The position numbers and the translations under genes are program-made. A stretch of 64,000 nucleotides of DNA from Okamejei kenojei (lineage: Eukaryota), in assembly GCA_035221665.1 (NCBI GenBank), contig CM069131.1:50592001-50656000 (forward strand), in the 5' to 3' direction. The notes beneath the pieces are model-generated. The model did no database searches. It was given only the letters and a program-made list of their open reading frames with translations, and was not told where the DNA came from. Positions 11,903 to 60,810 of the stretch are shown here, piece after piece. How positions within the stretch are numbered: position 1 is the stretch's first letter; every line of letters begins with the position of its first letter.

Positions 11903-13562
11903 TCAAAACCTGCAGATTAACAAATTCATATATGCATATAATGGATAATCTTCATTTGTTACTGGATTAGTCAAGATATCACTACAGTTAAGAATCTGCA
12001 TATACGGTTCTTTAATCATATTCAGCATAACTGGGAACCAAGGTTGAGTTGGCCAATTTGGCCCTACCAACAATCCGGAAGCTGAATCTTGCTCTATTTT
12101 CTTCAAGCATCTCTGGATCAGAGCAAATGGTGGAAAAGCATAAAAGAACATTTTTCCCCAGTGTAATAGAAATGCATCTACTGCAACTGCGTCCGGATCG
12201 TGTTCCCAAGACACATAATGAGGCAAATGATGATTAAGCCTGGATGCAAAATCAATTTCTGGCAACCCAAATCGTCGAACAATATTCTTAAATATTGGTG
12301 GCTTAAACATCCATTTCGTATTATCTTTAAAAATCCTGGACCTTTCATCTGCTACCACATTGTCTTTACCTGGAGTATAGCTTACTGCAATCCATATCTG
12401 CCGACCAATACACCATTGCCATATTCTCATTGACCAGACAATCACATGATACTGATCCAACTCTCCCCATATGATTAATGTAAACCACAGCTGTTTTATT
12501 GTGTAATTGTAATTAAACACATGCAGACCTTGTTTAGCACAACAATATGCTTTAAGCCCATAAAAGGCCCCCAATAACTCCCAATAGTTAATACCATACT
12601 CTTGGAGAAACACTTGTTCTTCAGTTTTCCATCTACCTCCACAACTGGAGGATAAATCTGTGGCCCCCCATCCGAGAGCACTAGCATCTGTATGTAAAAC
12701 CATTTCAGGCTGTTTAATCATAATATTTATTTAGCAGCTTGTGGGACATTTTCCTTTTTTAACCCACCATTGTAAATTCCAATACAGCTTCTTTTGTTAA
12801 TTACATAGGCCTGTCAAATGCCTGCCTTCTCTTTGAGAGCTTGTATCTTGTACCTTCGAAGATATCAATAAATGTAATGAACCAAATTCTAATGCAGGAA
12901 AATGCTGCTAGCAGTTCACCAATGGTTGTCACCATTTCTCGGATGGAAGGATAAGGTTTTGAATGAGATAATGACAAGTTACCAAAATATCATCGACTTT
13001 AACTGTTGGTAAAGGTATTAACATAGTCACTGAGTTAATTACAAACCCCAAAAGTAAATTGTTTGTGCTGGCTGCAGCTGGGGCTTAATTAGATAATTAA
13101 GAACCTTAGCTTACCACAAAGCTTTAGTAACTGAAACTGAGTCCTCAGCTGACTCCTGATAATCACTAATGACCAGAATGTCATGAGATAAGCCATAATG
13201 ATGTGCATTTTGTGCTCTAATTGGGCTAAACTGGTTTCAACAGTTTCGTAAAAGAGTAAAAAGCTGAACTCAGTCCATTTGGCAAAGCTTAACTGCCATA
13301 ATTGTCACAACCAATTAAAATTTAAGTATCACCGAAACCTGATACATAGGTACAGAATAATAGGCGTCTTTTCATCAATCTTAGCCATATAACAACCTGC
13401 TGAATTAAATATTTTTGCAGTATTCCATGACTCCATTTGAACATGTTTGTATTCTACAAACTTATTTAGACCTGTAAGGTCCAGAAATACTTCTGCAACC
13501 ATCATCTGTATGCCTTCTAACATTAAAGACAAATTTATGCTCGTGTTCAAAATCTTTTCCAT
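11903..13562 (-). pseudogene. DIRS pol: RT, RNase H and N6-adenine-methyltransferase-like domain, frameshifted
   Basis: DLTGLNKFV, ALPNGLSS, YL(D)DIL with a 1-nt deletion near 13185, LHTDASALGWGA, NVVAD, IDFASRLN, FYAFPPF. Confidence 0.88.
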
Positions 13563-14642
13563 TACCCCTTTCCCAGATAATTAGGCAATGTGGACATAAA
13601 ACTCTGCTTTTTCAATGCAGAAACACGAAAACATAAGCAGGTTTATTCTGTACAGGAGGATTAACCTCTTGTTTTTAAAAGTAATAGTAGTTAATGAAAC
13701 TGCTCGTAATATACTGATCAAAAATAATAGTAAGCCAGTTTTAATAAACTTTTTGTAATCTCCCTCTAACTGGAGATTAATCCGCAGTTTCTTTAAGCAG
13801 GGAACACGTCTTTAATTCCTCTGCATATGAGCGTGGTGGTCTCCTTATCCCCTGAATTCGGTAAGTATTTGGTTGTGCAATACAATAAAACTTCCTTGAC
13901 ATATTTCTGCCTCTATTTCCAATATCAAATCCCCTTCTGGGCGAAAAATACCTTTTCGTCCAAAGACGAAGGTTTCATGCAGCTAAAATATTTTAGCTTT
14001 TCATCCAATTTCAATAAGTTAGGCAGATTATTCCAAACAGATAACCAAGAGCTTAAACACCACTTGCTCGACACAGGTATGCAACCTTGGGTGAAAAAAA
14101 TGGGCCAAATAGCCATTTATTTTATACAAAAGTTCATAGAAAAAATTGCACAATAGCGTCTTTATTTTATGTTTTCCTTTCATCTGCCCAAAAGCCATAA
14201 TAGCAGCAGAGTAATTTGTGAGGATTTTTAAACCTCACTATTTGACGCTCTCATATTTGGAGTCATGAATGCCCATATTAACGGATAAACCGTAGGCTCT
14301 TCCAATGAGGCACAATTTCCTGTGCTGTGCAATTTTAATATTTCAATCATCACAGAATCATGAAGTTGGTGAGATACCATATACATAATGTAGGTAGCTA
14401 GGTTTTTCCATAGCCTCACCACTTCCTTTAGATATAGCAAAACTTTTGCTATCTCAGGCACACCTGGCCTCACTTTTATTTTTATTTTATTTGTAGTGTG
14501 CATTCATAATTCACATCACCACTTGCAGGGTCTGTCTTTTGCAGCCCTGATCCACTTGGAATTATATCCAAAGAGACTTCCTCCACCCTATCCAGGGTCA
14601 GAGTTTTTATTTTTCAATTTGGCACATAGCCATATTTTGTAT

Positions 14643-14766
14643 ATTCAAGCCCCTCAGGGTCTTTTTTGGGGAACTGTTTGGGTACTGTGACCCTGGTCTT
14701 TAGTACATTCAAGTCCCTCAGGGTCTTTTTTTGGGGAACTGTTTGGGTACTGTGACCCTAGTCTCT
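14643..14766. repeat. Two-copy 64-bp tandem repeat inside the DIRS 5' region
   Basis: ATTCAAGyCCCTCAGGGTC...GGTACTGTGACCCT starts at 14643 and at 14707. Confidence 0.9.
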
Positions 14767-15604
14767 TTTTATATTATGGAGTACTTTCTCCATATCGCGA
14801 ATTTTATTAACTTTTTTAAAAATACAGTCTTTCTGATTTTTAAAATATCCTGCCAAAATTGTGGAGCATTTAAACCTTTCTACCGTATTTTAAACGGTAC
14901 CAGTATCGGAACCGGCCCCGTAATTAATCTCTCGTCCCGATCGCTGGGTATTCCCCTGGGACGTTCTTTTTTAAAAACTCCGTTATTTTAACAGAGTATA
15001 TCTGTTTAATTTAAACTTTTAGTTAGTTTTTTAAAACCTTTAAAATCCTGGTTTCCACCAGGCACGGAGTTTTCTAGTCCTAAAAAGTTTTTCAACAGCA
15101 CTTACCTGCCGGTTCCGAACCTACCGCTGTCGAGGAGCTGCTCCTTACTGCAGCTCCTGCTTCTGCCGTCAGCGTCGACGTAATGCCGTTACCAGCGTGA
15201 GGCGGGTTCTTCACGTAGTCACTCACGTGACTCCGAAGTTGCCTATAGAATTGAATTTCTGCACTATTCCATAAGAAGCTGATGAGTGAAAGTATTTTAG
15301 TCACTGTTGGCTTTCTTAAAGGACCAGTGACAAATTGACAAACGTTGTATTTGATATTGATTAACATCATCTCATTCTTTTGTATTTGGTACTTTTAACA
15401 TGATGTTCATGAACAATGTGCAACCTACATACTGATCAGCTATCAAAATCAACATGTGAAAGGCAATACGTGACTCTGGGATAAAATTGAATTTGGTCTT
15501 TACATATGGCTGCTGCTGCATGACCAGGCAATTGTGAACACTCTCTTTATATTCATGCTAGGATCATGTTTCTTCACTAGCTTAGCTAGATGAGACACTG
15601 GTTT

Positions 15605-15925
15605 GGGGTTAGGGCTATTAATGTCATGTGTACCGAGGTACAGTTAAAAGCATTATTCTGCATGCTTTCCAAACAGATCAGATACCATACATAAGTACAA
15701 TTAAGTCAAACTCTGCTTCAATATATAGAGCAAAGGGGAAGGTACAGAGAGCAGAATACAGTTCTCAGCATAGCAGCTAATCAGTTCCACCGAAAAAGTC
15801 CAATGCTCGCAATGGGGTAGAGGTGAAACGGATGGTACCCCAGCTTACGGAAGAACTGTTCAGAAGCCTGATGACTGTGAAGTAGCTGTCCCATGCCTTG
15901 GGTGATGTGACTTTCACCGTGTCCC
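15605..15925 (-). mobile_element. Rex1/Babar-like LINE 3' UTR
   Basis: TGTCATGTGTACCGAGGTACAG...GTTCAGAAGCCTGAT motif seen many times in the window. Confidence 0.65.
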
Positions 15926-17619
15926 AGGCTGTGAAACTGAAGGTCCACACGTTAGCTTTCCTGTATTCACATAAATAGCTGAGGCAGTAATTGGAGAGTG
16001 CCCAGTGAATCTGGAACAATACCACTTCACGGAGCCTACGTCTCAAGAGGAAGTGCAGGGAACAAGCAAAACTCCATGGGTAAACTGTTTATTTCTCAAT
16101 GGCGTCTTTGGAAGTATTTTAATCTTTGTTGTGAATAGTTCCATCACAACCTATGCTGATACACATTGGGCTTGAATGAAGCTGTCAGGCGGGGTAGTCG
16201 TGACTTAATTTTATAAAGCTGCTTTTGGCAGGCCAAATTGTTCAAGGCTAACTATCTGGAAACCTGTCAATAGAAGGTTGGCACCAGCAATAATGAATCG
16301 ACGAATGGATGTTTTCTGTTTCTATCCTGTCCACGAGTGAGATATGCTTCTCTGAAACCTTTTATTTTTGCATTGCCTGTTAAGTCAAGCTAATCGTGCT
16401 TTACCTTTGAAGTGTAAATGAACAATTAGGGATCTTTTATTTCACGATTCATATACACTGTTACCTGTTTTGGTTCTTGAACAAGCTCAACATGTTGCTT
16501 AACATAAGTCAGTTAGGCAAGTGATTCAGCGCAATCTGTCTAGCCTGCATCGTAGCTATGAGGAGTCTTGTTTTATCCAGTTAGGGAGCACACGCTGTGT
16601 ATTTGTTAATGCTCCATACAGAATACTCCATACAGTAAGGTGCAACATTCAGCATAAGAGGACTGTATTCATAGTCACGCTGTCTGCAAAATTCACTGTA
16701 AACTACAGAGTAGCCCACCTTCACTTTTTCTTCAATACGGAGATATCATGCCTTTGGAAATATTTGGTAACAGATTTGTTCTATCGCTTCACCACTGTGT
16801 TATCCTTCATTAAAATAGGACACTGACCTTCATTAACAAGATATGTTTTGCTAAGATCTTATTTTTCGTTATTTCACTCCATGTGTATGTTCTGTATTCA
16901 CCAGCAGCAAAGTGTTTGAAAATAATTTTTGGTGATAATTTTTCATTCTTTAAATCAATTTATAATTGTTTGCAAACACGTTTGGTCCCATTAAACGCAA
17001 TGAGACCGCCCTTTGTTGGAAATGAAACTAAATGGAAACATAGTTCAGAGTAAAGAAACGAGCAGGCGGAGGAACTCAGCGGGTCAGGCAGCATCTGTGG
17101 AAGCAAAGTGATGGTTGATGTTTCAGATCGAGACCCCGCATCAGGACTCTTGTGTCCCCAGGTTACTGTGTAGCCCACTGACCGGTTTACCACTGCCAGT
17201 CCCATCTACCTGTGGGATGGCAACAAAACTGAAGCTACAAGGTGTTGGGAATAATCTGTGCCAAGGGGGCAGGACCGGTTGGAGGAAGGGTGGTGTTTGT
17301 CTTCATTCACTCTATGCTGTGTCTGTAATTATCTCTAAGGTTTTGAATTCCAAGGCAACATTGAGAGTCTGCAAACAAAGGGTCTATCTGCTTTGGTGCA
17401 GACAATTTAGCACTGACATTCACAAGTTTGCCTATTTCTATCATCTACTCTAGAGGTTAGTTAGTTTAGTTTATTGCCAGGTGTACGAGGTACAGTGAAA
17501 AGCTTTCGTTGCGTGCTACAATTCGGGGCAGAAGATCAGGCAGCAGAGACTCCTTCATGAATAAGTTGGAGACATAAGAGTTGGCGGTTGCTGTAATCAG
17601 GAGCAAAAAACAAATGTTT

Positions 17620-17800
17620 ATAAACAAAGAACTGCAGATGTTGGTTTGTGCTAAAGATAGAGGCGAAGTGCTGGAGTAACTCAGCAGGTCAGACAGTATC
17701 TCTGGGTCTGAAGAAGGGTCCCAACCGGAAACGTCACCCATCCCTTTTCTCCAGAGATACTGCCTGACCCGCTGAATTACACCAGCCCTTTGTGTCTACC
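17620..17800. mobile_element. Penelope-derived fold-back repeat with a hammerhead motif
   Basis: Inverted arms GCTGGAGTAACTCAGC... flank TGGGT-CTGAAGA-...-GAAAC-GTC-ACCCA. Confidence 0.75.
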
Positions 17801-18334
17801 TTTTCAAAAACACAACCTGCTGGACGAACTCAGTCGCTCAGGCAGCATTTGTGGAGGCAGAGGGATTGTCATTGTTCAGGATCGAGAACCTGCGATTAAA
17901 GTATGTGGTGAAGAGCAGTGAAAACCACGGAGGGGGAGGAAGTTCTTTAAAGTGAAAATACCATGAAGAGACTTCACAGGGGACACACAGAGTCTGCAGA
18001 TGCTGCAATCTGGAGCAAGAAACACTGCTACTTCTCTGTGGTTTCTTTTGTGTTTTGACCACAGCTAGATCACTGTGTGAACCTGTATTACTCGCAACAC
18101 GGAGATTGCTGAGAGACATGGACGCAAATAATTACGATGGATGACTTGAGCACTCTGCCAACAACCCTACTTTATATAGCAATAAATTATGCATGTTCCT
18201 TTCCCTTCTCCTTCTCAGCTTCTGCTATGCAGGGAATTGCTGACTGTCGTAGGACATTAATTGCACTAGGTTGGTCAACAAGAGGAAGCTTATTCTCAGG
18301 CAGGATGGACAAGTATTCCCTCTCCCCTGAATCT

Positions 18335-18370
18335 CAGTCTGAAGAAGGGTCTCGACCCGAAACATCACAT
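18335..18370 (+). ncRNA. Minimal type I hammerhead ribozyme motif (Penelope pLTR-derived)
   Basis: CTGAAGA (18339-18345), helix II GGGTC/GACCC, GAAA (18359-18362), C-ATC; activity not established. Confidence 0.6.
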
Positions 18371-18621
18371 ATTCCTTTCTGCAGAGATGCTGCCTGACCC
18401 ATTGAGTTACTCCAGCATTTTGTGCCTATTCTCAAAGAAAGGCACACACAGTGTACAGAAAAAGGATAAACGGTACAACGTTTAGTGTAAGATAAAGTCC
18501 GATTAAAAATAGTTCAAAGGTCTCCAATGAGGTAGATGGGAGGTCGGGACTAGCCCGAATGGAGGACAGTTCAGTTGTCTGATAACAGGCAAGAAGGAAG
18601 AAACTGCCCCTGAATCTGGAG

Positions 18622-19935
18622 GTAGACACAAAATGCTGGAGTAGCTCAGCGGGACAGGCAGCTTCTCTGGAGAGAAGGTATGGGCGACGTTTTGGGTCGA
18701 GACCCTTCTTCGGACTGATGTCAGGGGAGTAGGCAGGACAGAGATAGAATGTAGTCGGAGACAGTAAGACTGGTGGGAGAACTGGGAAGGGGGAGTAATG
18801 GGGAGAGAGAGGGAAAGCAAAGGCTATTTGATAGTTCGATAGGTCAATATTCATACCGCAGGGGTGTAAACTACCCAAGCGAAATATGAGGTGCTGTTCC
18901 TCCAATTTGCGCTGGGCCTCACTCTGACAATGGAGGAGGCCCAGGACAGAAAGGTCAGATTGGGAATGGGAGGTGGAGTTGAAATGCTGAGTCATCGGGA
19001 AATCAGGTAGATTAAGGCGGACTGAGCGGAGGTGTTCAGCGAAACGATCGCCCGGTCTGTGCTTGGTCTCGCCGATGTACAGAAGTTGACACCTGGAACA
19101 GTGGATACAGTAGATGAGGTTGGAGGAGGTGCAAGTGAACCTCTGCCTCACCTGGAAAGACTGATTGGGTCCTTGGATGGAGTCAAGGGGGGAGGTAAAG
19201 TGACAGGTGTTGCATCTCCTGCAGTTGCAGGGGAAAGTACCTGGGGAGGGGGTGGTTTGGGTGGGAAGGGATGTGTTGACCAGGGAATTTCGGAGGGAAC
19301 GGTCTCGGCAGAAAGCAGAAAGGGGTGGAGATGGGAAGATGTGGCCAGTAGTGGGATCCCGTTGGAGGTGGCAAAAATGTTGGATGACTATACGCTGTGT
19401 GCGACGGCTGATGGGGTGGAAGGTGAGGACAAGAGGGACGTGTCGTGAATAGGGGGAGGAAGAGCAAGAGCGGAGCTGCAGGATATCGAGGCGACCCTAG
19501 GTAGAGCCTCATCTATAACGGAAGAGGGGATCCCCTGTTTTCTAAAGAACGAGGACAACCTTGGAAAACCTCATCCTGGGCGCAGATGTGGCGCAGATGG
19601 AGGAATTGGGAGTAGGGGATAGAGTCTTTACAAGAAGCAAGGTGGGAAGAAGTGTAGTCTAGATAGCTATGGGAGTCAGTGGGTTTGTAGTAGATGCCGG
19701 TCAATAGTCTGTCTCCTGTGATGGAGACGTGAGATCCAGAAACGGTAGGGAGATGTCGGAGATGGTCCAAGTGAATTTGAGTGCAGGATGGAAATTAGTC
19801 GTGATGTTGATGAAGTCAGTGAGTTCTGCATGGGTGCAGGAGGCAGCACCGATGCATCGTCAATGCAGTGGAGGTAGAGTTCAGGGAGAGGGCCAGTGTA
19901 CGCCTGGAACAGTGATTGTTTGGCGTACACTACAG
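18622..19935 (-). mobile_element. Penelope-like element: RT C-terminus, GIY-YIG endonuclease and pLTR
   Basis: FTCTSSNLIYCIHCSRCQLLYIGETK...RFAEH...GMN; YYKPTDSHSYLDYTSSH...SIPYSQF; YLHCIDD; inserted into a LINE tail at 18435-18622. Confidence 0.92.
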
Positions 19936-19944
19936 GCGATCACC

Positions 19945-20160
19945 CGTACACCAGTTTTACCCGAAACACTAGGGACAATTTCCAAAGCCAATTAACATAC
20001 AACCCCGCACGTCTTTAGAATGTGTGAAGAAATCGGAGCACCCGGAGAAAATCCACGCAATTACTGGAAGAACGTGTGAACTCTACACAGACAGCACCCA
20101 TAGTCAGGATCAAACCTGGGTTTCTGGCATAGTGAGGCAGCAACTCTACCGCTGCACCAC
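19945..20160 (-). mobile_element. V-SINE (HE1-like)
   Basis: Reverse V-SINE motifs ending in GGCAGCAACTCTACCGCTGCACCAC. Confidence 0.8.
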
Positions 20161-20752
20161 AATGTTTCAAGTCTGGCAATCTCCAGCTATGGGAACTCGC
20201 TGAAGTATCATCCCTCCATTAGGGGAAGCCCAAGAGGCTAGGCAACGAGTAGACTGGCCGCCTTACAGCAGGGAATGAAATCCAGGCTAATGCCGCTGTC
20301 GACGGCTGTTCAAAGCTCATCTCACAGCTGACTGCCGCTAATGGATTGTCTCATCATAGGAGCTGGCATTGCATCCTCCCCCACCCCTCTTCCGACCTCC
20401 AACCTCACCCTGGATCTATAAAATCCACTGTGCTGGAAACTAAATTGAAATGGGAATATTAAAAGTGCCTGGTGACAGACGTATTTAGGTCGCGCATGGC
20501 TTGTTTGCTATTCCTACTGGATATGCTTGCACCCAGGAGGATTTCTTCACAAAGAGTAAATTATAAATGTTGACCCCTGCTTTAAGGCCAGATATGCCTC
20601 GGTTTTCTTGGATAGAGTTATTCACTGTCCTCATTTCAAAGTACTTTTGATTTCATCACTGGTAGGATGGCCCCACTTCCCAGTTACTGTGCATTGCATT
20701 GCCACCAGCATTTGCATTTTAACTCCTCGTTACTGATGCACTGTTCCCAGAA

Positions 20753-21176
20753 AAGGACACAAAGGACTGGGGTAACTCAGTGGGTCAAGCAGCATCTCTG
20801 GCAAACATGGATATCTTTTCAGTCGTGGCACTTCTTTCAGGCTGATTGTAGGGGTGTGGGTTGAGGGAGAGGAAGAAATCTGGGGGCGAGTAGAGGCTGG
20901 ACGAAGCATGGCAGGTAATAGGTGGACACGTTCGAGGGGGGGGGGGGGGGGGGGTTAAATAGGCAGATAGTTGGAACAAAGGCCACAGATTAAAAAAGGT
21001 GTGAGACAGATGGATGGAAGAGTTGCAAATTGTGAAGCCGGAGGAAGGAAGGGGAGAAATAGGTGCAATTCCAGAAGGGGCACAAAGGGAGGGGAGAAAG
21101 GGGAGGGGGTGATTTTGAGTTATTCCAGTACGTAGTATCTTTTTGTGTAAACCAACATCTGCAGTTCCTTGTTTCC
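20753..21176. mobile_element. Short Penelope-derived insertion with a 15-bp TSD
   Basis: GCACTGTTCCCAGAA at 20738-20752 and 21177-21191; inverted pLTR segment followed by a forward tail. Confidence 0.8.
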
Positions 21177-21476
21177 GCACTGTTCCCAGAATTGCCTAAT
21201 TTCTTTTTTTAGATTGCCAGAAGTTGTCATTTTAGTTTTTACAATCTGCAGGTCTGTTCATGGCAAAAAATGATTGATTTTTAGATAGGGGATCAATTCT
21301 TATGGGAAGTGTGCAGTCGTGACCTTCTCTTCCTCCAGTCTCTTATATTCCGGTGTCCGTTGGAAACTAACATTTTAATTCCTTTATTCTTGGATTAGTT
21401 TCGTTTATTAATGTCACACGTACTGAGGTACAGTGAAAGCTTTTTTGTTGCGTGTTATCCAGTCTCCAATAAGGAT

Positions 21477-21765
21477 GGCACAGCGGTAGAGTTGCTGCCT
21501 TGGAGCACTAGAGACCTGGATTCGATCCGAACTACGGGTGCTGTCTGTACGGAGTTTGTACGTTCCCCCCGTGACGTGGTTGTCTTCGGTGTCTGGTTTT
21601 TTTTTACCAAAGACATACAGGTTTATAGGTTTTGGGCCCTGTAGAAATTGTAAGTTGTCCTAGTTTGTGTTGGATATGCTAGCGTTCGCTGGTCGGCGGG
21701 ACTCGGTGGGCCGAAGGGCCTGTTTCCAAGCTGTATCTCTAAACTAAACTAAACTAAAACTAAAC
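21477..21765 (+). mobile_element. V-SINE nested in a LINE 3' UTR
   Basis: Head and tail motifs, (AAACT)n end. Confidence 0.85.
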
Positions 21766-22740
21766 TATACATGATGACCATCAAGTTGGCCACTAGACTG
21801 ATGCAACATAAGAGGTCGCATTTAGTGCAAGATAAAGCAAATCAAATCACAGCCACTTATACAAGATAAGGGAGACTTTGCTTGTGATACTTTGGGAAGT
21901 CCCAGATCATTTTAAAATTGTTCAGACATATTCTGAAGTCCAATCTCCATGGTGATGTCTGATACATGACGGGCATTTCATGGATGGATCAGTCGGACCT
22001 GTATATTCTGTTCTTCAGTGATCTCGATTTGAAAAATTATGTAATTTATTTAACTTCCCTGCTTCAAACAAAAAACATTGGCTATATCAATTGGCTTGGC
22101 ACGATTATTGGGAAGTGTGGCCAGTATTTTTCCATTGAAAAGAAGGAACTGACTGATGTAACGATGAAGGAAATCTATCTCATAGATATCTTATTAATAT
22201 TGTAACGATCTGTCACATTTGTCGTTTTGTATGTTATTTCATAAACTGAATGTAAGTTATCTTTTGATTGCCACAGTTTCTTTCGGCTGTGATTTTGCGT
22301 GTAACATCCTTGAGAAGGTTCCAAGAGCTCTGTGCCAAGATGGAGAGATGATGAGGGGGATATCCATTTTTCAAACCTCTTCCCCTCAAAGCTAAAACAG
22401 GGAGCAGCTGGGATCAGTCTGGGTGTTGGAGAGCTCTTGAACTGAGGATCTGTGGACAACTCGCTCACCAAAATAATGCAAACAAATATGATACAGCTTG
22501 AAGACATCACACCCAGCAGCAGATGTCTTCATTGGTAAATCTTGAAATATGGATTAGTCCCTTTTTCCACTGACATCTGCCGAACATGAAGCCTCACAAA
22601 ACTCTTTCATTTAATGCCTGTCATAGACGGAAGCTACCAATTAGTTTCATGAGCAACTTTATTCCCAACTGACAACACAAGATAAAATCTTTGTGTGCAC
22701 AAGTCTGAATATCTTAGCAATTAGTTCTCACGATCTGTTA

Positions 22741-23570
22741 CAAAGTCAAAGTCAATTTTATTCGTCACATGAACCCGAAGGTGCAGTGAAATGAATTTGC
22801 CAGCAGCGATACACTTAAAAAGGACACACAATACACAATGAGATTTAACACAAACATCCACCACAGTATTCTTCACTGTGGTGGAAGGCAAAAGGTTCAG
22901 CCAGTCCTCCTCCTTTGTTCATCCGTGGTCGGGGCCATGAACCCTCCGTAGTTCCCGCTACGGACGGCCCGATGTACAGGCAGGTCCTCTCGTCGGAATG
23001 AACCAAACTCCGACGTCGGGACGGTCGAACACACTCTGCGGCCTGGAGTGCCCGAATCGGCAGTTTCATACCGGAGACCGCGGCTTCAGGATGTTATAGG
23101 CCGCCGGCCGGCAGTCGGAGCTCTTCGCTGGTGATTCCCAGCAAGGGATCCCAGACTCCGGATGGTAAGTCCATGCCACGCCCGCGGCTAGAAGCTCCGC
23201 AGACCACAGCCCCATGATGCTAAAGTCACCAGGCCTGCTATCGGAGCACTCCTCTCTGGCGACCCCCGGCAAGGGTTCACCCGGTCTGCGATGGAAAAGT
23301 CCACGCTGCGCCCGCTTCTGAAGCTTTGAGCGGGAAAGGCCGCTCCAATCCAAGCCGTTAGGCTGCAAGAGGGGCGACATGAAAAACTCGCCTCTCTGTC
23401 GAGGAGGTGACCGAAAACGGTTCCCCCCCCCCCCCCCACCACCCTCTACAAAAGACATACCGAGAGACACTAAAACAAACATTTGGACACACCAAAGAAA
23501 ACAAAAAAAGGCGAAATAACCAACACTCTGCTGGCAGGGCAGCCGACTCGCAGCGCCCCCCCACCGACCG
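22741..23570 (-). mobile_element. CpG-rich non-coding retroposon (family of 2860-3525)
   Basis: Shared 5' GGCTGCCCTGCC block and 3' GCCTTCCACCACAGTGAAG block; (TTTGAC)n tail. Confidence 0.7.
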
Positions 23571-23611
23571 ATCTAAGGATTTTCAAAGATTACAGCTCAG
23601 TGAAAACTCTC

Positions 23612-24305
23612 TTCAGTTTTAGTTCAGTTTAATTTATTGTCACGTGTACTGAGGTACAGTGAAAAGCTTTTGTTGCATGCTAACGAGCCAGCTGAAACAC
23701 AGTACATGATTACAATTAAACCATTGACAATGCACAGGTGCATGATAAGGGAATAATGTTTAGTGCAAGGTAAAGCCAGTAAAGTTCAATCAAAGATGGT
23801 CCCAGGGTCCACTATGATGTAGATAGTAGTTCAGGACTGCTCTCTGGTTGCGGTAGGATGGTTCAGTTGCTTGATAACAGCTGGGAAGAAACTGTCCCTG
23901 AATCTGGAGGTGCGCATTTTCACACTTCAATACCGTTTGCCCGATGGGAGAGAGGAGAAGAGGAAGTGGCCAGGGTGCGACTAGTCCTTGATTATGCTGC
24001 TGGCCTTGCTGAGGCAGCGTGAGGTATAAATGGAGTCAATGGAAGGGAGGTTGGCTTATGTGATGATATTGGGCTGTGTCCGCAAATCGCGTTCTTGGAT
24101 GGAGCTGTTCGCAAACCAAACGGTGATGCATCCTGATAAAATGCTTTATGTGGTGCTTCTGTAGACGTTGGTGAGAGTTTTAGGGGACATGCTGAACTTC
24201 CTAAGCCTTCTAAGGAAGTAGAGGCGTTGGTGTACTTTCTTCATTGTTGCTTCAATATGGGTGGTCCAGGAGAAGTTGGTGATATTGATTCCTAGTAATT
24301 TGAAG
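23612..24305 (-). mobile_element. Rex1/Babar-like LINE 3' portion
   Basis: ORF2 C-terminal relic plus the recurrent 3' UTR. Confidence 0.75.
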
Positions 24306-24371
24306 TTTTCAGCTTTGAAATGATTTTAAGCTGAAGGTGCTCTCAGTAGATGTATTACAATGAATACCTGT

Positions 24372-25070
24372 TATAGGAGCAGAATTAGGCCATTTGGTCC
24401 ATTAGGTTTACTCTGCCATTCAATTATGGCTGATCTATCTTTCCCTTTCAAACCTATTCTTCTGCTTTCACCCCACAAGCCCCTGACACCCTTATTAATC
24501 AAGAATATGTCAATCCCTGCCGTAAAAATACCCAATGACCTGGCCTTCACTGGAATTCCACAGATTGACCACCCTCTGTCTAAGGAGATACATAATGTTA
24601 TAAATTAAAACATAAAACAATACTGCACGGAGACTGACCCATCAGCCCACAAAATACTATCGTATCTGTCTCCACTACCACCCCTGGCAATGCATTTTAG
24701 GCCCCTACCACTGTCTGTATAGAAGACCTGCCAAGCAGTTATTAAAGCAACAATTATTATTTCTCCCTCTCACCTTATAGCTATGTCCTTTACTGTTGGA
24801 CATTTTCACCCTGGGAAATGTGGTTTAATCAAAGTCCCATAGGGCAGCATAATGAGTTACTGACTCTTGTATTCAATGCCGCTCGCAATGATGGCAAACA
24901 CACTGTACGCCTTCTTTGCCACCAATCTACTTGTGTTGCCACCCACAGTGAGCTATGAACTTGGACACCAAGATCCCTCTGCACTTCAGTGCTGTCAAAG
25001 GTTTTGACATTAATTGTATCCTTTTCATTTCCATACAACCTCCCAAGGTTATCTGACACATATTGACTCT
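24372..25070 (-). mobile_element. CR1 fragments
   Basis: CR1 tail and EVQRDLGVQVHSSL. Confidence 0.75.
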
Positions 25071-25454
25071 CATGTCCCTGTGTGTATTTGAAACTTGCAT
25101 TAGTGTAGACATTTGTATTGACATGTCTTGGTTATTAAAATAGAAATAGATTGTTAATCATGAGTTTTAAATAGATTAGAGATTTTTAGCTAGCAAAGCT
25201 ATGAAAGGATAGGGGTAATTGCAGAATGAAAGGGGAATAAGCACTTTTATTTTTATGTTAAGTGTATAAAATGATTTGTTTGACTTTATTTTCTTTATCT
25301 TTTGTTTTCCCTCTCTTTCACACACTATCTTTTGTCTGAAGAAGGGAGTTGACTCGAAATGTCACCCATTCCTGCTCTCCAGAGATGCTGCCTGCGCTGT
25401 GTTACTCCAGTATTGTGTGAATCCTCTGTGTAAACCAGCATCTGAAATTCCTTC

Positions 25455-26100
25455 CAACATCTTTCATTTTCTTTTTTTTTGCATATTGTTATTGTTCCCT
25501 CTTTTGTTATTGTTATTGTTCTACTCTTATATTCTGTATCTTTTATTCTTTGTCTTTTGTTTGTTTTCTCTTTTTTGTTCTTGTATTTCTCTTCTTTCCC
25601 TCTTTTTCTTTTGTTTTGCTCTTTTCACTTTTTCTTCTTCCCTATTTTTTTTTTGTTTTATCTTTCACTTTTTCTCCTTGGATCTTTCTGTTTACATTTC
25701 TTTCTCACTTTCATTTGTACTCTGTTTCCTCTTGTACTCTTTCCTTCTGCTTTTGTTTCTCACTTTATTTTACTCGACCTTTCATTCTCCTTTTTCTCTT
25801 CCCCTCTTCCATTCTTTTTTTACTTTCTTGCATATGTTCTAGATTTTGTAGTCTCCAGACTAATGTGGTTTCTTACACGCCTCCAAATAAGCAAACGGTC
25901 CACCCTCTCTGCACTCTTGCCTCCTTCATTGTCTCCTTTGTGTCCTCCTGCAACCCACCGCTATTCGCCCTTTCATAACATCTATCATTTTCTTTTGATT
26001 CTCTCAATCTACACCTCCTGTCTCTCCCTCGCAGTCTGTCTATCTCTCTGTCTGTCTTTCTCTCAGAGTGCTTCTCCGTCTGTCTGACACTCTCTCTCTG
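25455..26100. repeat. T/C-rich low-complexity tract
   Basis: Almost pure pyrimidine on the + strand; produces spurious F/L/S-rich ORFs. Confidence 0.9.
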
Positions 26101-26689
26101 CCCCATCAGTTCTATTTGTGTCTCTTGTTACCTGTCTCCATCTCACTGTGGATCTTCGACAGAAGTAGATGCAACCAGATGTAGTGTACTGCTGCAGAAC
26201 TCTGTCAGGGTTGCTAGTTTTCATTGAAATAAATGTTACCCCCTGATAAAGCAAGGCATCTCTGCCAATGCAACTTAATCCCACCTCGAGATGGTGATTA
26301 CCTTTTCCTTTACGAGTAAGAATCTTGTAAATATTATAATTCATGTCTCACGAATCTGGTGGGGCTTTTTGAAGAGATAACTAAGAGGATTGATGAGGGC
26401 AGGGCACTGGATGTTGACGTTGCTTCTATAGACTAGAGCAAGGTCCTGCATGGTAGGCTAGTCTGAAAGGTTAGATTGCATGGGAGAGTTTGGTGCTCGG
26501 ATGCATAATTGGCTTGATGGTAGGAAGTAGAAGGTGATGGTGGAAGGCTTCTTTTGAACAGGTGCACCGTGACCAGAAAGATAATGATAACTGAAAAGCG
26601 CACAGTAAAGCAGACTCATCACAGCAAAGTGATACTAAATCAGTTGCTTCTGGTGCCTCAAGATAGTGTTCAAAATTACTATCAAGTTT

Positions 26690-26950
26690 TAGAATTGCAG
26701 CATGGAAACTGGCCCTTCTACACCGACCATCACGATCACCTGTACACTAGTTCTATCCTACAAACTAGAGAGTGTTTATAGAGGTTAATTAACCTCCAAT
26801 CTGCACATCCTTGGAGTGTGGGAGGAAAACAGAGCACCCGGAAAAAACCCACGTGATCAGAGGGAGAACATACAAACTCCCTACAGACAGCACCCATAGT
26901 CACGTCTCTGGCTCTGTATTTCAGCAACTCTACTGCTGTGCCAGTGTGCC
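26690..26950 (-). mobile_element. V-SINE (HE1-like)
   Basis: Reverse V-SINE motifs. Confidence 0.8.
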
Positions 26951-26994
26951 ACCCTATCTCAAGGACAAGATATTTACAGATTAATTACTTGGAG

Positions 26995-27320
26995 TCATCG
27001 AGGCATACAGCCTGGAAACAGGCCCTTTGGCCCAACCTGCTACACGTCCCACTTGCCTGCATTTAGTCCATATCCCTCCAAACATGTCCTTCCATGTACT
27101 TGTCTAACTGTTTCTTAAACATTGGGATAGTCCCTGCCGCAACTACCTCGTCTGGCAGCTTGTTCTATACACCCACCACCCTTTGTGTGAAAACGTTACC
27201 CCTCAGATTCCTATGAAATCGTTTCCCCTTCACCTTGAACCTATGTCCTCTGGTCCTTGATTCCCCTACTCTGGACAAGAGACTCTGTGCATCTACCAGA
27301 TCTATACCTGTCATGATTTT
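26995..27320 (-). mobile_element. CR1 3' end
   Basis: SRTRGHRFKVKGKRF...FTQRVV. Confidence 0.85.
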
Positions 27321-27410
27321 TATCCCTATGTGATGATTAAAATAAAGCACCTTCTGCCCTTTCCCACCAATATAAAATATCCAGTGGTCCTATTCAAAGA
27401 AGAATAGGGT

Positions 27411-27700
27411 GGTACAGTGGCGTAATGGTAGAGTTGCTGCCTTACAGCACCAGAGAACGGGTTTGACCCCGACTACAGATGTTGTCTGTATGGAGTTGGT
27501 ACATTCTTCCCGTGACCGCAAAGGTTTTGTCCAGGTACTCCGGTTTCCTCCCACACTCCAAAGATGTACAGGTTTGTCGGTTACTTTGGCTTCGATAGAA
27601 ATTGTAAATTGTCCCTGGTGTATAGGATAGTGCTGGTGTACAGGGATCGCTGGCCGGTGTTTCGGCCTGTTTCCCGGTTGTATCTCTAAACTAAAGTAAA
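27411..27700 (+). mobile_element. V-SINE (HE1-like)
   Basis: CTCCGGTTTCCTCCCAC domain, head and tail. Confidence 0.85.
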
Positions 27701-27814
27701 TTAAACACGCACGTTTGTCCAGCGTTCTGACCAATATCTTTTCCCTTGGTGAACATGTACAATGTTGGGCCACTGCTGTTTCTGAGACATTGCTGGACAA
27801 TAATCAACATCTGC

Positions 27815-28590
27815 AGGTAAAGGGACAGGTGCTGCCTCTCCTGCGGTTGCAGGGAAAAATAAGCGCAGCCGCAGGAGATGCAACACCTGTCCCTTTACCT
27901 CCACCCCTTGACTCCATCCAAGGAACCCGACAATCTTGTCAGGTGATGCACAGGTTCACTAGCACCTCCTCCAACCTCATCTACTGTATCCGCTGTTCCA
28001 GGTATAAACTCCTGTACTTTGGCGAGATCAAGTGCAGGCTCGGCGATCGTTTCGCTGAACACCTCCGCTCAGTCCGCCTTAACCTACCTGATCTCCCGAT
28101 TACTCAGCACTTTAACTCCCCCTCTCATTCCAAATCCGATCTTTCTGTCTTGGGTGGACTCCATTGTCAGAATGAGGCCCAGCGCAATTTGTTGGAACGG
28201 CATCCATATTTCGCTTGGGTAGCTTACACCCCAGCGGTATGAACATTGACTTCACTCACTTCAAATAGCCCTTTCTTTCCCTCTTTTTCCATCCCCTCCC
28301 CTTCCCAGTTCTTCCACCAGTCTTACTGTCTCCGACTACATTCTATGTTTGTTCCGCCCACTCCCCTGACATAGTCTGAAGAAACATCACCCATTCCTTC
28401 TCTCCAGAGATGCTGCCTGTCCCGCTGAGTTAGTCCAGCATTTTATGTCTACCTTCGATTTAAACCGCCCAAAACGTTGCCTATTCAGTCTGAAGAAGGG
28501 TTTTGACCCAAACTGTTGCCTATTTCCTTCGCTCCATAGATGCTGCCACACCTGCTGAGTTCTCAGCATTTTTCGCTACCTTCTGCAGTT
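27815..28590 (+). mobile_element. 5'-truncated Penelope element (GIY-YIG plus tandem pLTR pieces)
   Basis: NLIYCIRCSRYKLLYFGEIKCRLGDRFAEHLRSVR; closely similar to the 18.8-19.2 kb copy. Confidence 0.9.
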
Positions 28591-28934
28591 ATTTCATTAA
28601 CATTTAAATATCTCCACATTACAACCACGAGGTACTCAAATAGTTAATCTGCTCACTGACTGGAAAACCCTTCCACCGAGTGCAGATGTTGCATTGTGCC
28701 AAATGCTGGGTTCAGCTACTGTTAACTCCCTAATGCAAAAAGCAGCCAATGGTTTTATGAGTGGCTGTCAAGAGTGTCTTAAATGGATAGTTTTCAAAAC
28801 CAGTTGGCAGTTACGTCGTAATTCGCCGACTATTGAAATATGAGTCACAACAGCTACACTTTGCCATGAGCTCTCCAAGATTTGACAATCTATTACAGTC
28901 GAAAATGGCTGCAATCTCGAGGTCGGGTTAATAT

Positions 28935-29630
28935 AGAGACATAGAAACATAGAAAATAGGTGCAGGAGTAGGCCATTCGGCCCTTCATTGACCATAGAAA
29001 CATAGAAAAATAGGTGCATGTAGGCCAAGCCCTTCATAGAAACATAGAAACATAGAGTAGGCCATTCAGCCCTTCGAGCCTGCACCGCCATTCAATATGA
29101 TCATGGCTGATCATCCAACTCAGTATCCCGTACCTGCCTTCTCTCCACCCCGTGATCCCCTTAGCCACAAGGGCCACATCCAACTCACTCTTAAATATAG
29201 CCAATGAACTGGCCTCAACTACCCTCTGTGGCAGAGAGTTCCAGAGACTCACCACTCTCTGTGTGAAGAAAGTCTTTCTCATCTCGGTCTTAAAGGATTT
29301 CCCCCTTATCCTTCGAGCCAGCACTGCCATTCAATATGATGATGGTTGAACATCCAAAATCAGTACCCCGTTCCTGCTTTCTCCCCAAATCCCTTGATCC
29401 CGTTAGCCCGAAGAGCTATATCTAACCCTCTTGAAAATATCCAGTTAATCGGCCTGCACTGCCTTCTGTGGCAGAGAATTCCAGATTCACTGGGTGAAAA
29501 GGTTTTTCCTCATCTCAGTCTGAAAAGGACTACCCCTTATTCTTAAACTGTGACCCCTGGTTCTGGACACCCCCAACATCGGGACCATTTTTCCTGCATC
29601 TAGCCTGTCCAATCCCTTAAGAATTTTACA
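28935..29630 (-). mobile_element. Stacked CR1 3' ends with (CATAGAAA)n tails
   Basis: Repeated CATAGAAA-ATAGGTGCA units; RIRGKSFKTEMRKTFFTQRVVSLWNSLP. Confidence 0.85.
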
Positions 29631-30224
29631 TGTAATGCTGGTCCATTGTAACTAGAATCAATTATAAATTGCTCCTGGGATTTAATTACTTCTACATGTT
29701 TTCTAATTCCTTGTATAATGTGTTTACTTTTTATTTTTACCTCTAACTCTATTGATGTATTTGTTAACTTGTCGATGGAAACTATACATAAGGCACAATG
29801 GATCCCCCAGCTATTTCTGCTGAGTGTCAGGTTACACCAGGGTTAAGAGAGAAATAATGCATTTTCAAGTTTAATGAAAAGCAAAAGTTCTTGGCATTTG
29901 GGGCTCATCGAACAGGCACACGGATAAAGGTCAGAGACGGCACAGCCAAGTCTGAAGCAAAGCATCTTCCAATCTGCTCCGACAAATGTGGCTACAGAAT
30001 AAAGCTCTGTTTCACAGCCTGACATCTCCAGTGTACTCAGCAGCCATCTTCCCCAAATGAAGTTGCCAGCTCTGTACTGTCGGCTGCATCAGCAGCCTCT
30101 AAAATAATTAAACCCTTTCTCGCTGAGGTATTTTCCAGGCAATGGAATGGAGATGTTTTTGTTCCATTCATCTGGACTGGATTCAGAACCAAATCCCAGA
30201 TGTAACGGGATATGATATTAACCC

Positions 30225-30460
30225 AAGGATAGACACAAAAATGCTGGAGTAACTCAGCGGATCAGGCAGCACCTCTAGAGAAAATGGACAGGTGACGTTT
30301 CGGGTTTGGGACCCCCCTTCAGACCGATTGTAGGGGGGAAGAACTGGAAGCAAAAAGAGACCAGGACAAAATCTGACTAAGGCCACACAGCACAGCATAT
30401 ATTTTGTATACACCCTCATATTTTGCTTGGGTAGCTTACAACCCAGCAGTATGAACATAG
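30225..30460 (-). mobile_element. Penelope-derived fragment
   Basis: pLTR motif and a GIY-YIG C-terminal piece. Confidence 0.7.
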
Positions 30461-30990
30461 GTACAGTAAAAAGCTTTTGTTGCATTCTATCCAGTCAGCA
30501 GAAAGACTATATATGATTGCAATCGAGCTGTCCACAGTGTAAAGACACATGATAAAGGGAATAATATTTAGTGCGAGATTATGTCCAGTAAACTCTGATT
30601 AAAAACAGTCGAAAGGTTTCCAATGAGGTAGATGGTAGGTGGTAGGTCAGGACTGCTCTTAAGTCGGTGATAGGATGGCTCAGTTGCCAGATAACAGTTG
30701 GGAAGAAACTGTCCCTGAATCTGGAGATATGCATTTTCACACTGCTATACCTCTTGTCTGAGGGGAGAAGAGGGAGTGACCAGGGTGAGACTCATCCTTG
30801 ATTATGCTGGTGGCCTTGCTGAGGCAGTGTGACGTGTGAATGGAGTCAAAGGGAGGTTGGTTTGTGCAATGGTCTGAGCTGCGTCCAAACTTCTCTGCAA
30901 GTTCATGCGGTCTTGAATGGAGCTGTTTGAAACCATGTGATGCATCCCGATAAAATTATTTCTACGGGGCATCTGTAAAAGTTGACGAAC
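30460..30990 (-). mobile_element. Rex1/Babar-like LINE 3' portion
   Basis: Co-linear with 23650-24170. Confidence 0.75.
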
Positions 30991-31189
30991 TGTAGATGTT
31001 CTACATCTTTTGACCAAAAATATAAATGTACGCATGCATTAAATTAGCATGCATTATTATCATAATTTGGACATTTTTGGACTGAATGGTTAAATAGCAT
31101 CTTCTAGGTAAAACGTTACAGCTGCCTTGATAAAGCTTAACATGTTGCACCCATGACTTAACAAAGGCTGATGTGGCTCAAAGCAGGCT

Positions 31190-31860
31190 TAGAAACATAG
31201 AAACATAGAAAATAGGTGCAGGCTCGAAGGGCCGAATGGCCTACTCCTGCACCTATTTTCTATGTTTCTACAAGGGCCACGTCTAACTCCCTCTTAAATA
31301 TAGCCAATGAACTGGCCTCAACTACCTTCTGTGGCAGAGAATTCCAGAGATTCACCACTGTGTGAAAAATGTTTTTCTCATCTCGGTCCTAAAACATTTC
31401 CCCCTTATCCTTAAACTGTGACCCCTTGTCCTGGACTTCCCCAACATCGGGAACAATCTTCCCGCATCTAGCCTGTCCAACCCCTTAAGAATTTTGTAAG
31501 TCTCTATAAGATCCCCCCTCAATCTTCTAAATTCTAGCGAGTGGAAGCCGAGTCTATCCAGTCTTTTTTCATATAAAAGTCCTGACATCCCAGGAATCAG
31601 TCTGGTGAACCTTCTCTGTACTCCCTCTATGGCAAGAATGTCTTTCTTCAGATTCGGAGACCAAAACTGTACGCAATACTCCAGGTGTGGTCTCACCAAG
31701 ACCCTGTACAACTGCAGTAGAACCTCCCTGCTCCTATACTCAAATCCTTTTGCTATGAATGCCAACATACCATTCGTTTTCTTCACTGCCTGCTGCACCT
31801 GCATGCCTACTTTCAATGACTGGTGTACCATGACACCCAGGTCTCGTTGCATCTCCCTTG
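31190..31860 (-). mobile_element. CR1 3' portion
   Basis: QRDLGVMVH...LVRPHLEYCVQFWSP...RRLRGDLIETYKI...RTRGH. Confidence 0.92.
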
Positions 31861-31861
31861 A

Positions 31862-32300
31862 TTAAGATCATAAGTGATAGGTCATTCGGCCCATCAAGTC
31901 GACTCTGCCATTCAATCATGGCTGATCTATCTCTCCTTCCTAACTGCTTTCTCCTGCATTCTCTCCATTACCTCTGACATCCATACTAATCAAAAATCTA
32001 TCTATCTCTACCTTAATATATCCACTGACTTTGCCTCCACAGCCTTCTGTGGCAAACAATTCCACAGACTCACCACCCTCTGACTAAAGAAATTCCTCCT
32101 CATCTCCTTCCTAAAAGAATGTCTTTAATTCTGAGGCAACTAGTGGGAGAGTCCTAAACTCTCCCACTAGTGGAAACATCCTCTCCACATTCACTCTATC
32201 CAAGACTTTCACTATTCTGTACATTTCAATGAGGTCACTCCTCATTCTTCTAAACTCCAGTGAATATTGGCCCAGTGCCGACAAACGGTCATCATATAAT
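31862..32300 (-). mobile_element. CR1 3' end, second subfamily
   Basis: CR1 tail and degenerate ORF2 end. Confidence 0.75.
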
Positions 32301-37270: not shown

Positions 37271-37450
37271 TAAAAAACAAGCTGGACACATTCCTGGGGG
37301 CGTCTTGATATGACCTCTCACCACCAATCAACCCACCACATATTCCCACCGTTGTTCACCAAACAGGTCCATTCTCACAGCACCTGACCCCACCAGAAAG
37401 GAAGAAACAAGGAACTTCAAATGCTGGTTTCCAAAACGAGAAAGTGCTGG

Positions 37451-37587
37451 CATCTTCTTGCGTACGGCGTGCACAGCCCAACGTTGTAGGTCAACTTGTT
37501 CTATTTGATCTATTTGTTTGTGCACGTCGGGTTGATTGCATTAGTCGAAACTGGTTGGACCACGTGAAGGTTGCAATCTCCTACCCC
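37451..37587 (-). mobile_element. 137-bp non-autonomous Ingi/Vingi-like retroposon
   Basis: 8-bp TSD AGTGCTGG (37443-37450) / AGTACTGG (37588-37595); starts GGGG, ends CGCAAGAAG; partial second copy at 46059-46125 with a (GAA)n tail. Confidence 0.75.
37534..37587 (-). ncRNA. Candidate HDV-like self-cleaving ribozyme (this copy degenerate in P1)
   Basis: GGGGTAG-GA-GATTGCA-ACC-TTCACGT-GGT-CCAACCA-G-TTTCGA-CTAA-TGCAATC fits the nested double-pseudoknot order; P2 7/7, P3 3/3, P1 4/7. Confidence 0.65.
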
Positions 37588-37689
37588 AGTACTGGAGTAA
37601 TGCTGTGGTACAGGGAGCATCACAAAAGAGGATGGCGAGGTGCCGTTTCGCATTGGGACCCTTCTTCAGACTGATTGTGGGATCGAATT

Positions 37690-39170
37690 AATGAATAAAT
37701 ACTTTATGGACACATGTGACAAGTGACAGTGAAATGTGTTGCTTACATACCCAAGGAATGCAAATAGTCGCCCATAAAGTAGGTATGTTACAAAACTTAC
37801 CTTGAGCAGCGCTGCAGTTCTGCAGCTCCCCGTGTGCGTGCCTTTGGCGCCTTTCAGAGGGGGGGCGTGTTTAAAGTGCAGTTTTTCCACAGATAGGGCA
37901 AATCGATCCATGTTAGGGGATTTCATTGCTGAAGAAAAATTGTTCCGACAATTTCATTCATGAAGTTATTTTAAAATTACGCTATATTATTTATTAGCTA
38001 GAGTAATTTAAAAATCATCTTCTAAAGCTGTGAGCGCCGACAACGGGAAGGATTTTACGTAGGGGAGAAAATAAAGTACACAGTTTATTTTTACATTAAA
38101 ACTTGGTTTTTAGGAAGCATTTAATCACATTTTCATGTTGCGAAATGGGGACAAAAAAATGTCTGAACCGGCAGTGTTTTTCATGCTGACTTCACCGCAA
38201 ACCGCAACGTTCTAATCCACCGCATTCCACTAAAACCCACTCGCAAGTTGATTTAAATGGCCATTAATTTATAGGAATTAAACACTAAATTCCTTCCATT
38301 TGGCCTACAAATTCATGAAAATGAGATTTAAAAATCATGTTATATTGTGAATTATTGTGTGAATGTTATTTGGACACTTAGGCAATTTAAAAAAGTTTAT
38401 CTTTTCTTAAGAAATGGATAGATGTTTAGATCTAGTAATTGAATTTTGCAATTATCTACAATTAGGTAACTAACTAATTATATGCTTTAATTTCAGGTCA
38501 TCCAAGTAATATTGTTTCATATTTGTTTCAGAATGCTTAAATCTATAATAACTGAAAATTTCATTGAATTCTCTTAATTTTTAAGAAAGTTCTGGGCTTT
38601 TGACTGTCCTAGATCACAGCTTTTGTGTTAAGTCAATGGAAAGGCAATGGGGAACAAGATGCTAATTTCCTAGTATGAAAATGGCCATAACATTTTTAAT
38701 ACTGAAGATATGAAAGTGAATTAGGTGTCAAATTAAACTTCTTTTTATGCTTTATCTGATGGAATAAATTGCAGACTTGCTTTTTTAAATCTCAAAATGT
38801 TGTAACATTGCTACACAAAGGGCGCTCACAAAGTGTACACAATATCTGCGCCAAGGTCCCCCTTTGTTCTCTCCCCCCCTCTCTCCCTCACGGTGGTCCC
38901 CCCAGGCCGGGTCCTTCTTTGTTCTTTCCCCCGGCAACAGCGTCCTCACTTCTACGTGGTCCGTCCTCGTCCGTTGGACGACGCCCCTATCGGCTGCCGT
39001 ACCAACCTCTCCGCTATCGCCGCCGGGTCCTCTCCAGATGCCTTTGTAGCGCCAAACCAGGCCCCAGCCGCCGGCTCCGTCGACCCAGGGGCACTTTGCC
39101 GCGGGGCTTCATCGACAGGTGAGGCTTCACCTCCAGCCTGTGAGGCTCCGGCCTGGAAGAAAGCTGGTCA
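37690..39170 (-). mobile_element. CpG-rich repeat split by MITE copy 2
   Basis: LINE-like tail at 37690-37779; CpG-rich sequence resumes at 38814 after the TSD. Confidence 0.5.
37780..38813. mobile_element. Non-autonomous DNA transposon (hAT-like MITE), copy 2
   Basis: Same TAG...CTA termini as 3986-4982; flanks CATAAAG / CACAAAG. Confidence 0.87.
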
Positions 39171-46058: not shown

Positions 46059-46125
46059 GATCAAACAGAACTAGTTGTCTTACAACTTTAGGGCGTGAAC
46101 GCCTTATGCAAGAAGAAGAAGAAGA
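46059..46125 (+). mobile_element. 3' half of the 137-bp Vingi-like element
   Basis: GATCAAACAGAACTAGTTGTCTTACAACTTTAGGGCGTGAACGCCTTATGCAAGAAGAAG matches the reverse complement of 37451-37510. Confidence 0.7.
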
Positions 46126-60607: not shown

Positions 60608-60810
60608 AAAGTGCTGGAGTAACTCAGCAGGTCAGGCAGCGTCTCTGGAGAACATGGACCAGTGATGATTCAGGTCAGAACCCTTTTGAATAATGGTCAC
60701 GTCTCAAATGCCGCCTATCCATGTTCTCCAGAGATGCTGCCTGACCCGCTGAGTTACTCCAGCACTTTGTGCCCTTTTTTGTAAACTAGCATCTGCAGTT
60801 CCTGTTTCTA
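60608..60810. mobile_element. Penelope-derived fold-back repeat
   Basis: AAAGTGCTGGAGTAACTCAGC...GAGAACATGGA arm and its reverse complement, followed by the tail. Confidence 0.8.

Follow-up and report, generated by a model that had tools for sequence, protein, structure and literature searches.

On the minus strand of the window, that is, the whole stretch of 64,000 nucleotides of Okamejei kenojei DNA that was analysed, lies a 137-nt retroposon copy that begins with a predicted HDV-like ribozyme and joins segments from the two ends of a LINE (Table 1). Its 3'-derived segment holds the final codons of the LINE ORF, a short 3' UTR, the terminal motif and the start of the GAA tail.

Table 1. Parts of the short element and related features, in positions of the window
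Feature	Position	Strand	Remark
Left target-site duplication CCAGTACT	37588..37595	-	
Whole short element, 137 nt	37451..37587	-	one decayed member of a family in which at least 8,360 copies bear the core
Segment from parent LINE 5' end (element nt 1-80)	37508..37587	-	identity 74/78 nt to L215, 71/74 to L203
Predicted 54-nt HDV-like ribozyme	37534..37587	-	predicted cut 5' of 37587
Ribozyme P1	37587-81/37558-52	-	4/7 pairs in the window copy
Ribozyme P2	37578-72/37540-34	-	
Ribozyme P3	37571-69/37561-59	-	
Ribozyme L3	37568-62	-	
GT after P1, single P1.1 pair	37551-50	-	
5-nt connector replacing P4	37549-45	-	
Candidate catalytic C	37544	-	J4/2 of the predicted ribozyme
5' pairing arm GACGTGCACA	37519..37528	-	directly after P2'; pairs with the 3' arm in 3/3 folds
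13-nt linker at deletion junction	37495..37507	-	first 8 nt repeat element nt 72-79
Segment from parent LINE 3' end (element nt 94-135)	37453..37494	-	identity 38/42 nt to L167, 38/42 to L203
3' pairing arm TGTGCACGCC	37466..37475	-	directly before the terminal motif
Right target-site duplication CCAGCACT	37443..37450	-	
Copy from a sister subfamily of the short element, truncated at its 5' end	46059..46125	+	(GAA)n tail

All ribozyme segments named by the first-pass annotation were found exactly, on the minus strand from 37587; P2 (7 bp) and P3 (3 bp) are perfect Watson-Crick helices, and the three mismatches reported for P1 are G1.A, G4.A and A6.C. The duplication said to mark the predicted cleavage site is likewise present, in that CCAGTACT and CCAGCACT are identical at seven of eight positions and adjoin 37587 and 37451, respectively. 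Taken by itself, this duplication is weak (score 5, threshold 8); other window copies of the host repeat carry the 8-mer once at the same place (60733-60809). A 1-kb repeat pair of 83% identity (3982-4991 and 37776-38822) also lies in the window, beside the element. Of the claim that the 3' 60 nt or so recur further on, the recurrence stands (46059-46116 match at 81% over 58 nt), and the tail shared with the LINE measures 42 nt rather than about 60. The stretch 46059-46125 was considered as a LINE end and rejected, being a 5'-truncated copy of the short element; a query with the tail gave only short-element copies. The annotated lack of a tRNA head agrees with ARAGORN, which reported none, and with the derivation of the head from a LINE 5' end. 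An HDV descriptor, composed after the element had been seen and thus not blind, matched this site alone within the window and none in 10 shuffled windows on both strands. When the element and 10 loci of its family were scanned with Rfam, no relevant match was returned. The descriptor selected a shifted P1 register with 5/7 pairs, against 4/7 for the register of the family, and the window copy is likely to be inactive as a ribozyme.

A DNA search of the genome with the element returned 3,393 candidates. Among the 40 that were scored is the window copy itself; the remaining 39 are 93-96% identical to it. A 25-nt core pattern matched the genome exactly 8,360 times (control, 0); because the core was exact in no more than 18 of the 29 copies in one sample and 5 of the 19 in another, extrapolation suggests a family total of roughly 13,000-32,000. 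The insertions are dispersed. A positional sample was formed by the 30 matches that come first on contig C1, picked out by a core starting at nt 13. Every copy in it reaches G1, 27 retain all seven P1 pairs and none continues into a LINE body; interruptions occur in three, and two stem from a single insertion that was duplicated. Target duplications, called at a score of at least 8 with the upstream search limited to 8 nt from G1, flank 30 of the 47 full-length copies examined (mismatched controls, 1 of 150); among the positional copies the figure is 20 of 28, and the duplications measure 8-19 nt. Since the upstream search reached only 8 nt, longer 5' extensions are possible among the copies without a clear duplication (17/47 full-length, 8/28 positional). 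The duplication ends directly before G1 in 35 of 45 non-redundant copies and 1-3 nt earlier in the other 10; a single extra G occurs in 0/45. The 5' ends therefore cluster at G1, as the ribozyme reading had anticipated. In the contigs of three sequencing runs labelled as other organisms, matching records number in the thousands and have loose ends at G1; in the raw reads of a run from a fourth organism, of which about 6% was covered, no read fell on the element. In runs guessed to be RNA, the element sits inside contigs that continue into its flanks, which shows neither the start nor the level of transcription. Some short-element copies lie in or beside Vingi-like LINEs (L149:2069-2202, L172:3609-3742 and L200:1362-1497, the last locus adjoining a parent copy).

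The autonomous-type partner sharing both ends, whose existence had been predicted, was found as family F of a set of compact LINE families (labelled A-K) that was reached from a weak tail match in an endonuclease match. Locus L190 of family F is 97% identical to nt 8-80 of the typical short copy L009 (73 nt); past this stretch it enters an ORF, and its tail corresponds to nt 94-135. It is thus nearly certain that the short element is an internally deleted, non-coding derivative composed of the first 80 nt of family F, a 13-nt linker, the last 42 nt and (GAA)n. The linker has no match with up to two mismatches in the parent bodies at 33 loci. Searching with the family F 5' part gave 54 candidates, of which the 40 scored are 80-97% identical to L190; many family F copies have undergone 5' inversion, their heads having lost a few bases. 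Such 5'-inverted Vingi-like copies, with a ribozyme head trimmed by a few bases at the internal junction, include L191-L220, L167, L184 and L284-L286. The parent ORF starts about 105 nt after G1 and continues into the endonuclease, but no intact ORF occurs among 15 loci, where the longest open stretch is 338 aa. Its Pfam domains are EEP and RVT_1 (AP-endonuclease and reverse transcriptase, RT), the closest homologues are proteins of about 1,000 aa with the same domains, and RNase H is absent from the C-terminal parts of families F and B, although present in the I-group control L099. In a tree without named Vingi or Ingi references, the LINE families form one group (support 0.998) apart from controls that we take to be I-group and CR1/L2-like. 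Judged by its domains and ORF, the parent appears to be a degraded, single-ORF, RNase H-less, Vingi-like LINE. Its features match those given for Vingi elements, namely a compact single ORF, APE plus RT and no RNase H (PMC13708176; this and the other papers are cited from portions of their text).

Several other candidates for the parent were rejected: families A-E, G and H differ in stems and tails; the 30 best PF14529 loci belong to an unrelated two-ORF I-group LINE with RNase H; and a pattern with a guessed Trp codon in the parent tail yielded one truncated short copy only. Within the I-group, L099 (contig C2) represents a young family with many near-identical copies; in it, a gag-like ORF1 precedes an intact ORF of 1,276 aa that encodes endonuclease, RT and RNase H. 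A 453-aa open stretch at L141:220-1578 is unrelated to the LINE and is presumably envelope-like. In the tree, family F (L192, L195 and L205) falls together with P0001 and proteins of arthropods (support 0.936) and not with the genome's other families, a placement that hints at a possible horizontal transfer.

Most copies of the short-element family retain a complete predicted HDV-like fold within 54 nt, in which P4 is cut to 5 nt. Across the family, 96.3% of 684 cells are paired in a nested double-pseudoknot of P1 (7 bp, G1.Y), P2 and P3, and the expected restoration of P1 was obtained, the consensus being GGGGUGG/CCRCCCU with a G1.U wobble. This wobble is present in 32 of 36 distinct rows, P1 position 5 is U-A in 19 rows and U.G in 16, and P1.1 consists of one pair, C22-G37, in 35 of the 36, plus a U.U as in the Rfam CPEB3 consensus; in family B the P1.1 pair is U-A. 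For comparison, the canonical HDV descriptor has two C-G pairs in P1.1 (PMC6326823). T20 and G25 of the conserved L3 motif U..CG and C44, the candidate catalytic C of J4/2, are invariant in 48/48 aligned heads, and the neighbour of this C differs among subfamilies. Covariation in P1 and P2 had been predicted for the family consensus; it is lacking within the short-element family (one two-sided change; 277 of 500 shuffles as high), as is to be expected from the neutral decay of near-identical copies, and is seen across seven LINE families, represented by one copy each. All seven P1 pairs form in families F, A, B, C, D and E (L181) and six in G, with 3/7 in the second E copy, L187; relative to F, each sister family has one to three two-sided P1 changes, and P2 comprises 6-7 pairs of differing sequence. 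P4 measures 5 nt in F and 16-46 nt in the other families, and an HDV-like fold stands at the heads of all sister families examined. Secondary-structure prediction is less favourable: in the folds of the window copy and L009, nt 2-5 pair with nt 56-59 in competition with P1, and in none of three folds does whole-element energy beat shuffles (z -0.99 to 0.74), the program being unable to form pseudoknots. In family B (L137, L130), the 3' end carries the 7-mer of the P2 5' strand, which could compete for P2' and would, judging from its sequence, make a possible ribozyme switch.

A further feature joins the two ends of the element. The 10 nt after P2' and the 10 nt before the terminal motif are complementary at 9/10 positions in the window copy and at 10/10 in a sister subfamily, and both arms are present in the parent, about 3 kb apart. 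In a pairing test, the 5' window of each of nine families was compared with all 3' windows at sizes of 20, 30 and 40 nt. The family's own end gave the strongest pairing in 6, 7 and 8 of the 9 rows and in 7, 8 and 9 of the 9 columns, respectively, and 1, 2 and 1 of 362,880 permutations scored as well. For families A, C, D, E, F and G the pairing had been seen by eye before the test; for family H it was predicted before the head was read, and its 5' arm scored higher with the family G end at two of three window sizes. Families I and K were included at a later stage, and in a set of eight each came first in both its row and its column. Because family B is weak (own rank 2, 6 and 2 of 9) and family C (rank 3, 1 and 1) rests on a single copy, the family-specific pairing that these sequences suggest is clear in nine of 11 families. 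From this complementarity we infer that the RNA may close into a panhandle carrying both the ribozyme and the tail.

Heads of the sister LINEs also bear on the CPEB3 ribozyme. Against the Rfam model RF00622, 59 candidates were scored, and among the 42 matches listed, 30 clear the 35-bit cut-off, the best at 66.8; the heads of families I, J and K (L251-L262, L276, L280, L283 and L289) pass, those of family J including the P4 stem. Over the 46 nt that begin with G1, L252 departs from the model consensus at two positions (44 identical); no ORF was found near this locus. In L253, L257 and L262 a change in P2 is compensated. At L289 and L283 the head is followed by an EEP-RT ORF on the same strand, and at L253, L257, L259 and L280 it adjoins ORF fragments on the opposite strand (5' inversion). 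Since the stems vary freely between families, such identity to CPEB3 is hard to explain by convergence, and the mammalian CPEB3 ribozyme likely arose, as far as these sequence matches can indicate, by domestication of a related LINE head. In mammals this ribozyme is present as one conserved copy in an intron (PMC8233481); it is active, cleaving at 0.10 per min (PMC6326823), and the human genome keeps a Vingi trace (PMC5753468). In the available portions of text, neither "origin" nor "retrotranspos" occurs in PMC8233481, and PMC10919898 proposes no source. The short element shares with CPEB3 the L3 loop and the GU after P1 of the Rfam consensus, together with the J4/2 sequence CGAA in one subfamily, but it differs in having no RF00622 match, other stems and no P4.

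With respect to classification, the first-pass label of a ribozyme-headed SINE holds in so far as the element is a retroposon with a predicted ribozyme head; in the terms used by Kojima (PMC5786205, PMC4494074), however, it belongs with the bipartite non-autonomous LINEs and not with the SINEs. Both ends come from one LINE with the ORF deleted, and insertions are dispersed, with duplications and a simple-repeat tail, whereas a tRNA, 7SL, 5S or snRNA head, proper to SINEs, was found by neither ARAGORN nor Rfam (0 each). Bipartite non-autonomous LINEs are reported from the RTE, Ingi, Vingi and R2 clades, and the list of six clades with a 5' ribozyme in the available part of the same paper does not include Vingi (PMC5786205). 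The two-ended architecture is already known from NARTc, RIME, R2 SIDEs and the hedgehog Vingi derivatives. NARTc/RIME and the R2 SIDEs are likewise short and non-coding, consist of LINE 5' and 3' ends and carry an HDV-like ribozyme that cuts before +1 (PMC3383444, PMC4035085); NARTc, of 263 nt, is 97% identical to its LINE in the first 77 nt and 77% in the last 30 (PMC3383444). In contrast to NARTc/RIME, the present element has half the length, a parent without RNase H, a (GAA)n tail and a 54-nt predicted ribozyme with a 5-nt P4, and it occurs in an animal genome in more than 8,000 copies. The derivatives of Vingi-1_EE from hedgehog similarly arose by internal deletion that kept both ends of a compact, single-ORF, RNase H-less APE LINE (PMC5786205, PMC13708176); for these and for bipartite LINEs in general, the portions of text at hand mention no end pairing, unlike here. 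The drz-Mtgn minimal HDV-like and theta ribozymes also lack P4 and have the same P1/P2/P3 core and J4/2 cytosine. Such P4-less ribozymes are about 99% confined to tailed phages, the eukaryotes searched being human, mouse and protists (PMC10879173), whereas the present one heads an animal retroposon and has a single pair in P1.1. Ribozyme-bearing SINEs have been noted in metazoans (PMC6765202), and the words "ribozyme" and "vingi" do not occur in PMC5499810. In a search of the full-text literature, with Repbase, Dfam and patents outside its scope and prior naming possible, neither the short-element family nor a Vingi ribozyme, Vingi end pairing or LINE source for CPEB3 was found. Not found in print, more specifically, were a nearly P4-less HDV-like ribozyme at such copy number in an animal genome, family-specific pairing of the post-ribozyme sequence with the sequence preceding the 3' motif, and sister LINE heads above the Rfam CPEB3 cut-off.

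Considered together, these observations make it probable that the short element is a LINE-derived retroposon whose predicted minimal HDV-like ribozyme would cut before G1 and whose paired arms would present the tail for copying in trans. As inferred steps, the element would be transcribed by host read-through, from an internal Pol II promoter or by both; the predicted head ribozyme would likely cleave the transcript directly upstream of G1; the tail would then be held out to the LINE protein by the two paired arms; and binding of this protein would lead to target-primed reverse transcription in trans. The G1 boundary, the target duplications, the cross-family fold, the end pairing and the existence of active relatives, namely CPEB3 and the P4-less ribozymes (PMC10879173), count in favour of this mechanism. 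Against it stand the single Watson-Crick pair of P1.1, the near absence of P4, the lack of an Rfam match and of within-family covariation, the rival helix predicted between nt 2-5 and nt 56-59, and the inactivity of some well-folded SIDER ribozymes (PMC4035085). If the element were an ordinary Pol III SINE, or its fold a product of chance, this would account for the missing Rfam match and for a folding energy not above shuffles; this explanation has a negligible probability and is already refuted by the parent alignment, nt 1-80 being a LINE 5' end without a tRNA, the descriptor finding nothing in shuffles and the fold recurring in all sister families examined.

A promoter starting at +1 would equally yield ends at G1, and this too weighs against the cleavage mechanism. 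With the same origin, an internal Pol II promoter lying within the first 80 nt could fix the 5' end, the ribozyme being slow or acting on read-through transcripts only. The first-pass view that the element needs no promoter has to be set against its closest known parallel, the dual Pr77/L1TcRz system, in which Pr77 of L1Tc/NARTc works as promoter and ribozyme at once (PMC3383444). Dispersed insertion, a weak P1.1 and a missing P4 would suit such a start; nevertheless, the catalytic core is kept across families with differing stems, and a cap-derived single extra G is seen in 0/45 junctions (a weak point, since cap copying by the RT is not established), so that a promoter-set end seems rather improbable. 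The double-pseudoknot might also be kept as a protective or protein-binding 5' structure, with cleavage lost in the short-element family. The R2 ribozyme fold gives cap-like protection (PMC13708176), the R2 protein binds a 5' UTR pseudoknot (PMC6765202), and a competing fold is predicted here; a purely structural role is, all the same, very unlikely in view of the boundary at G1 and of a candidate catalytic C that is invariant in 48/48 heads beside a variable neighbour. Extending the preferred mechanism of cleavage and trans copying to the whole group, we lean, with some reserve, towards the view that Vingi-like LINEs carry a 5' HDV-like ribozyme and an adjacent arm pairing with the 3' end, forming a panhandle recognised by the protein; such an arrangement would explain two-ended mini-elements, the 135-nt one being near the minimum, and CPEB3 would be a domesticated head of this kind.

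The element is of practical interest as a natural minimal template for a LINE class in development for RNA-only gene insertion, in which the donors carry both Vingi UTRs (PMC13708176), and end pairing would supply a testable design rule for such donor RNAs. In addition, a near-minimal predicted HDV-like ribozyme of a form described almost only from phages here occurs thousands of times in an animal genome, and the sister families offer a concrete, checkable candidate source for the CPEB3 ribozyme. Other short derivatives are present as well. A second, unrelated two-ended family of about 165 nt (L272-L275, L277, L279 and L291-L301; 11 exact core matches) has its own P4-less HDV-like head with the same 5-nt connector length, a 12-bp end pairing and a GAA tail. 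At L266:1510-1605, an element of about 95 nt, in which a family K-type ribozyme head stands almost directly before the terminal motif and GAA tail, is possibly a third, smaller derivative.
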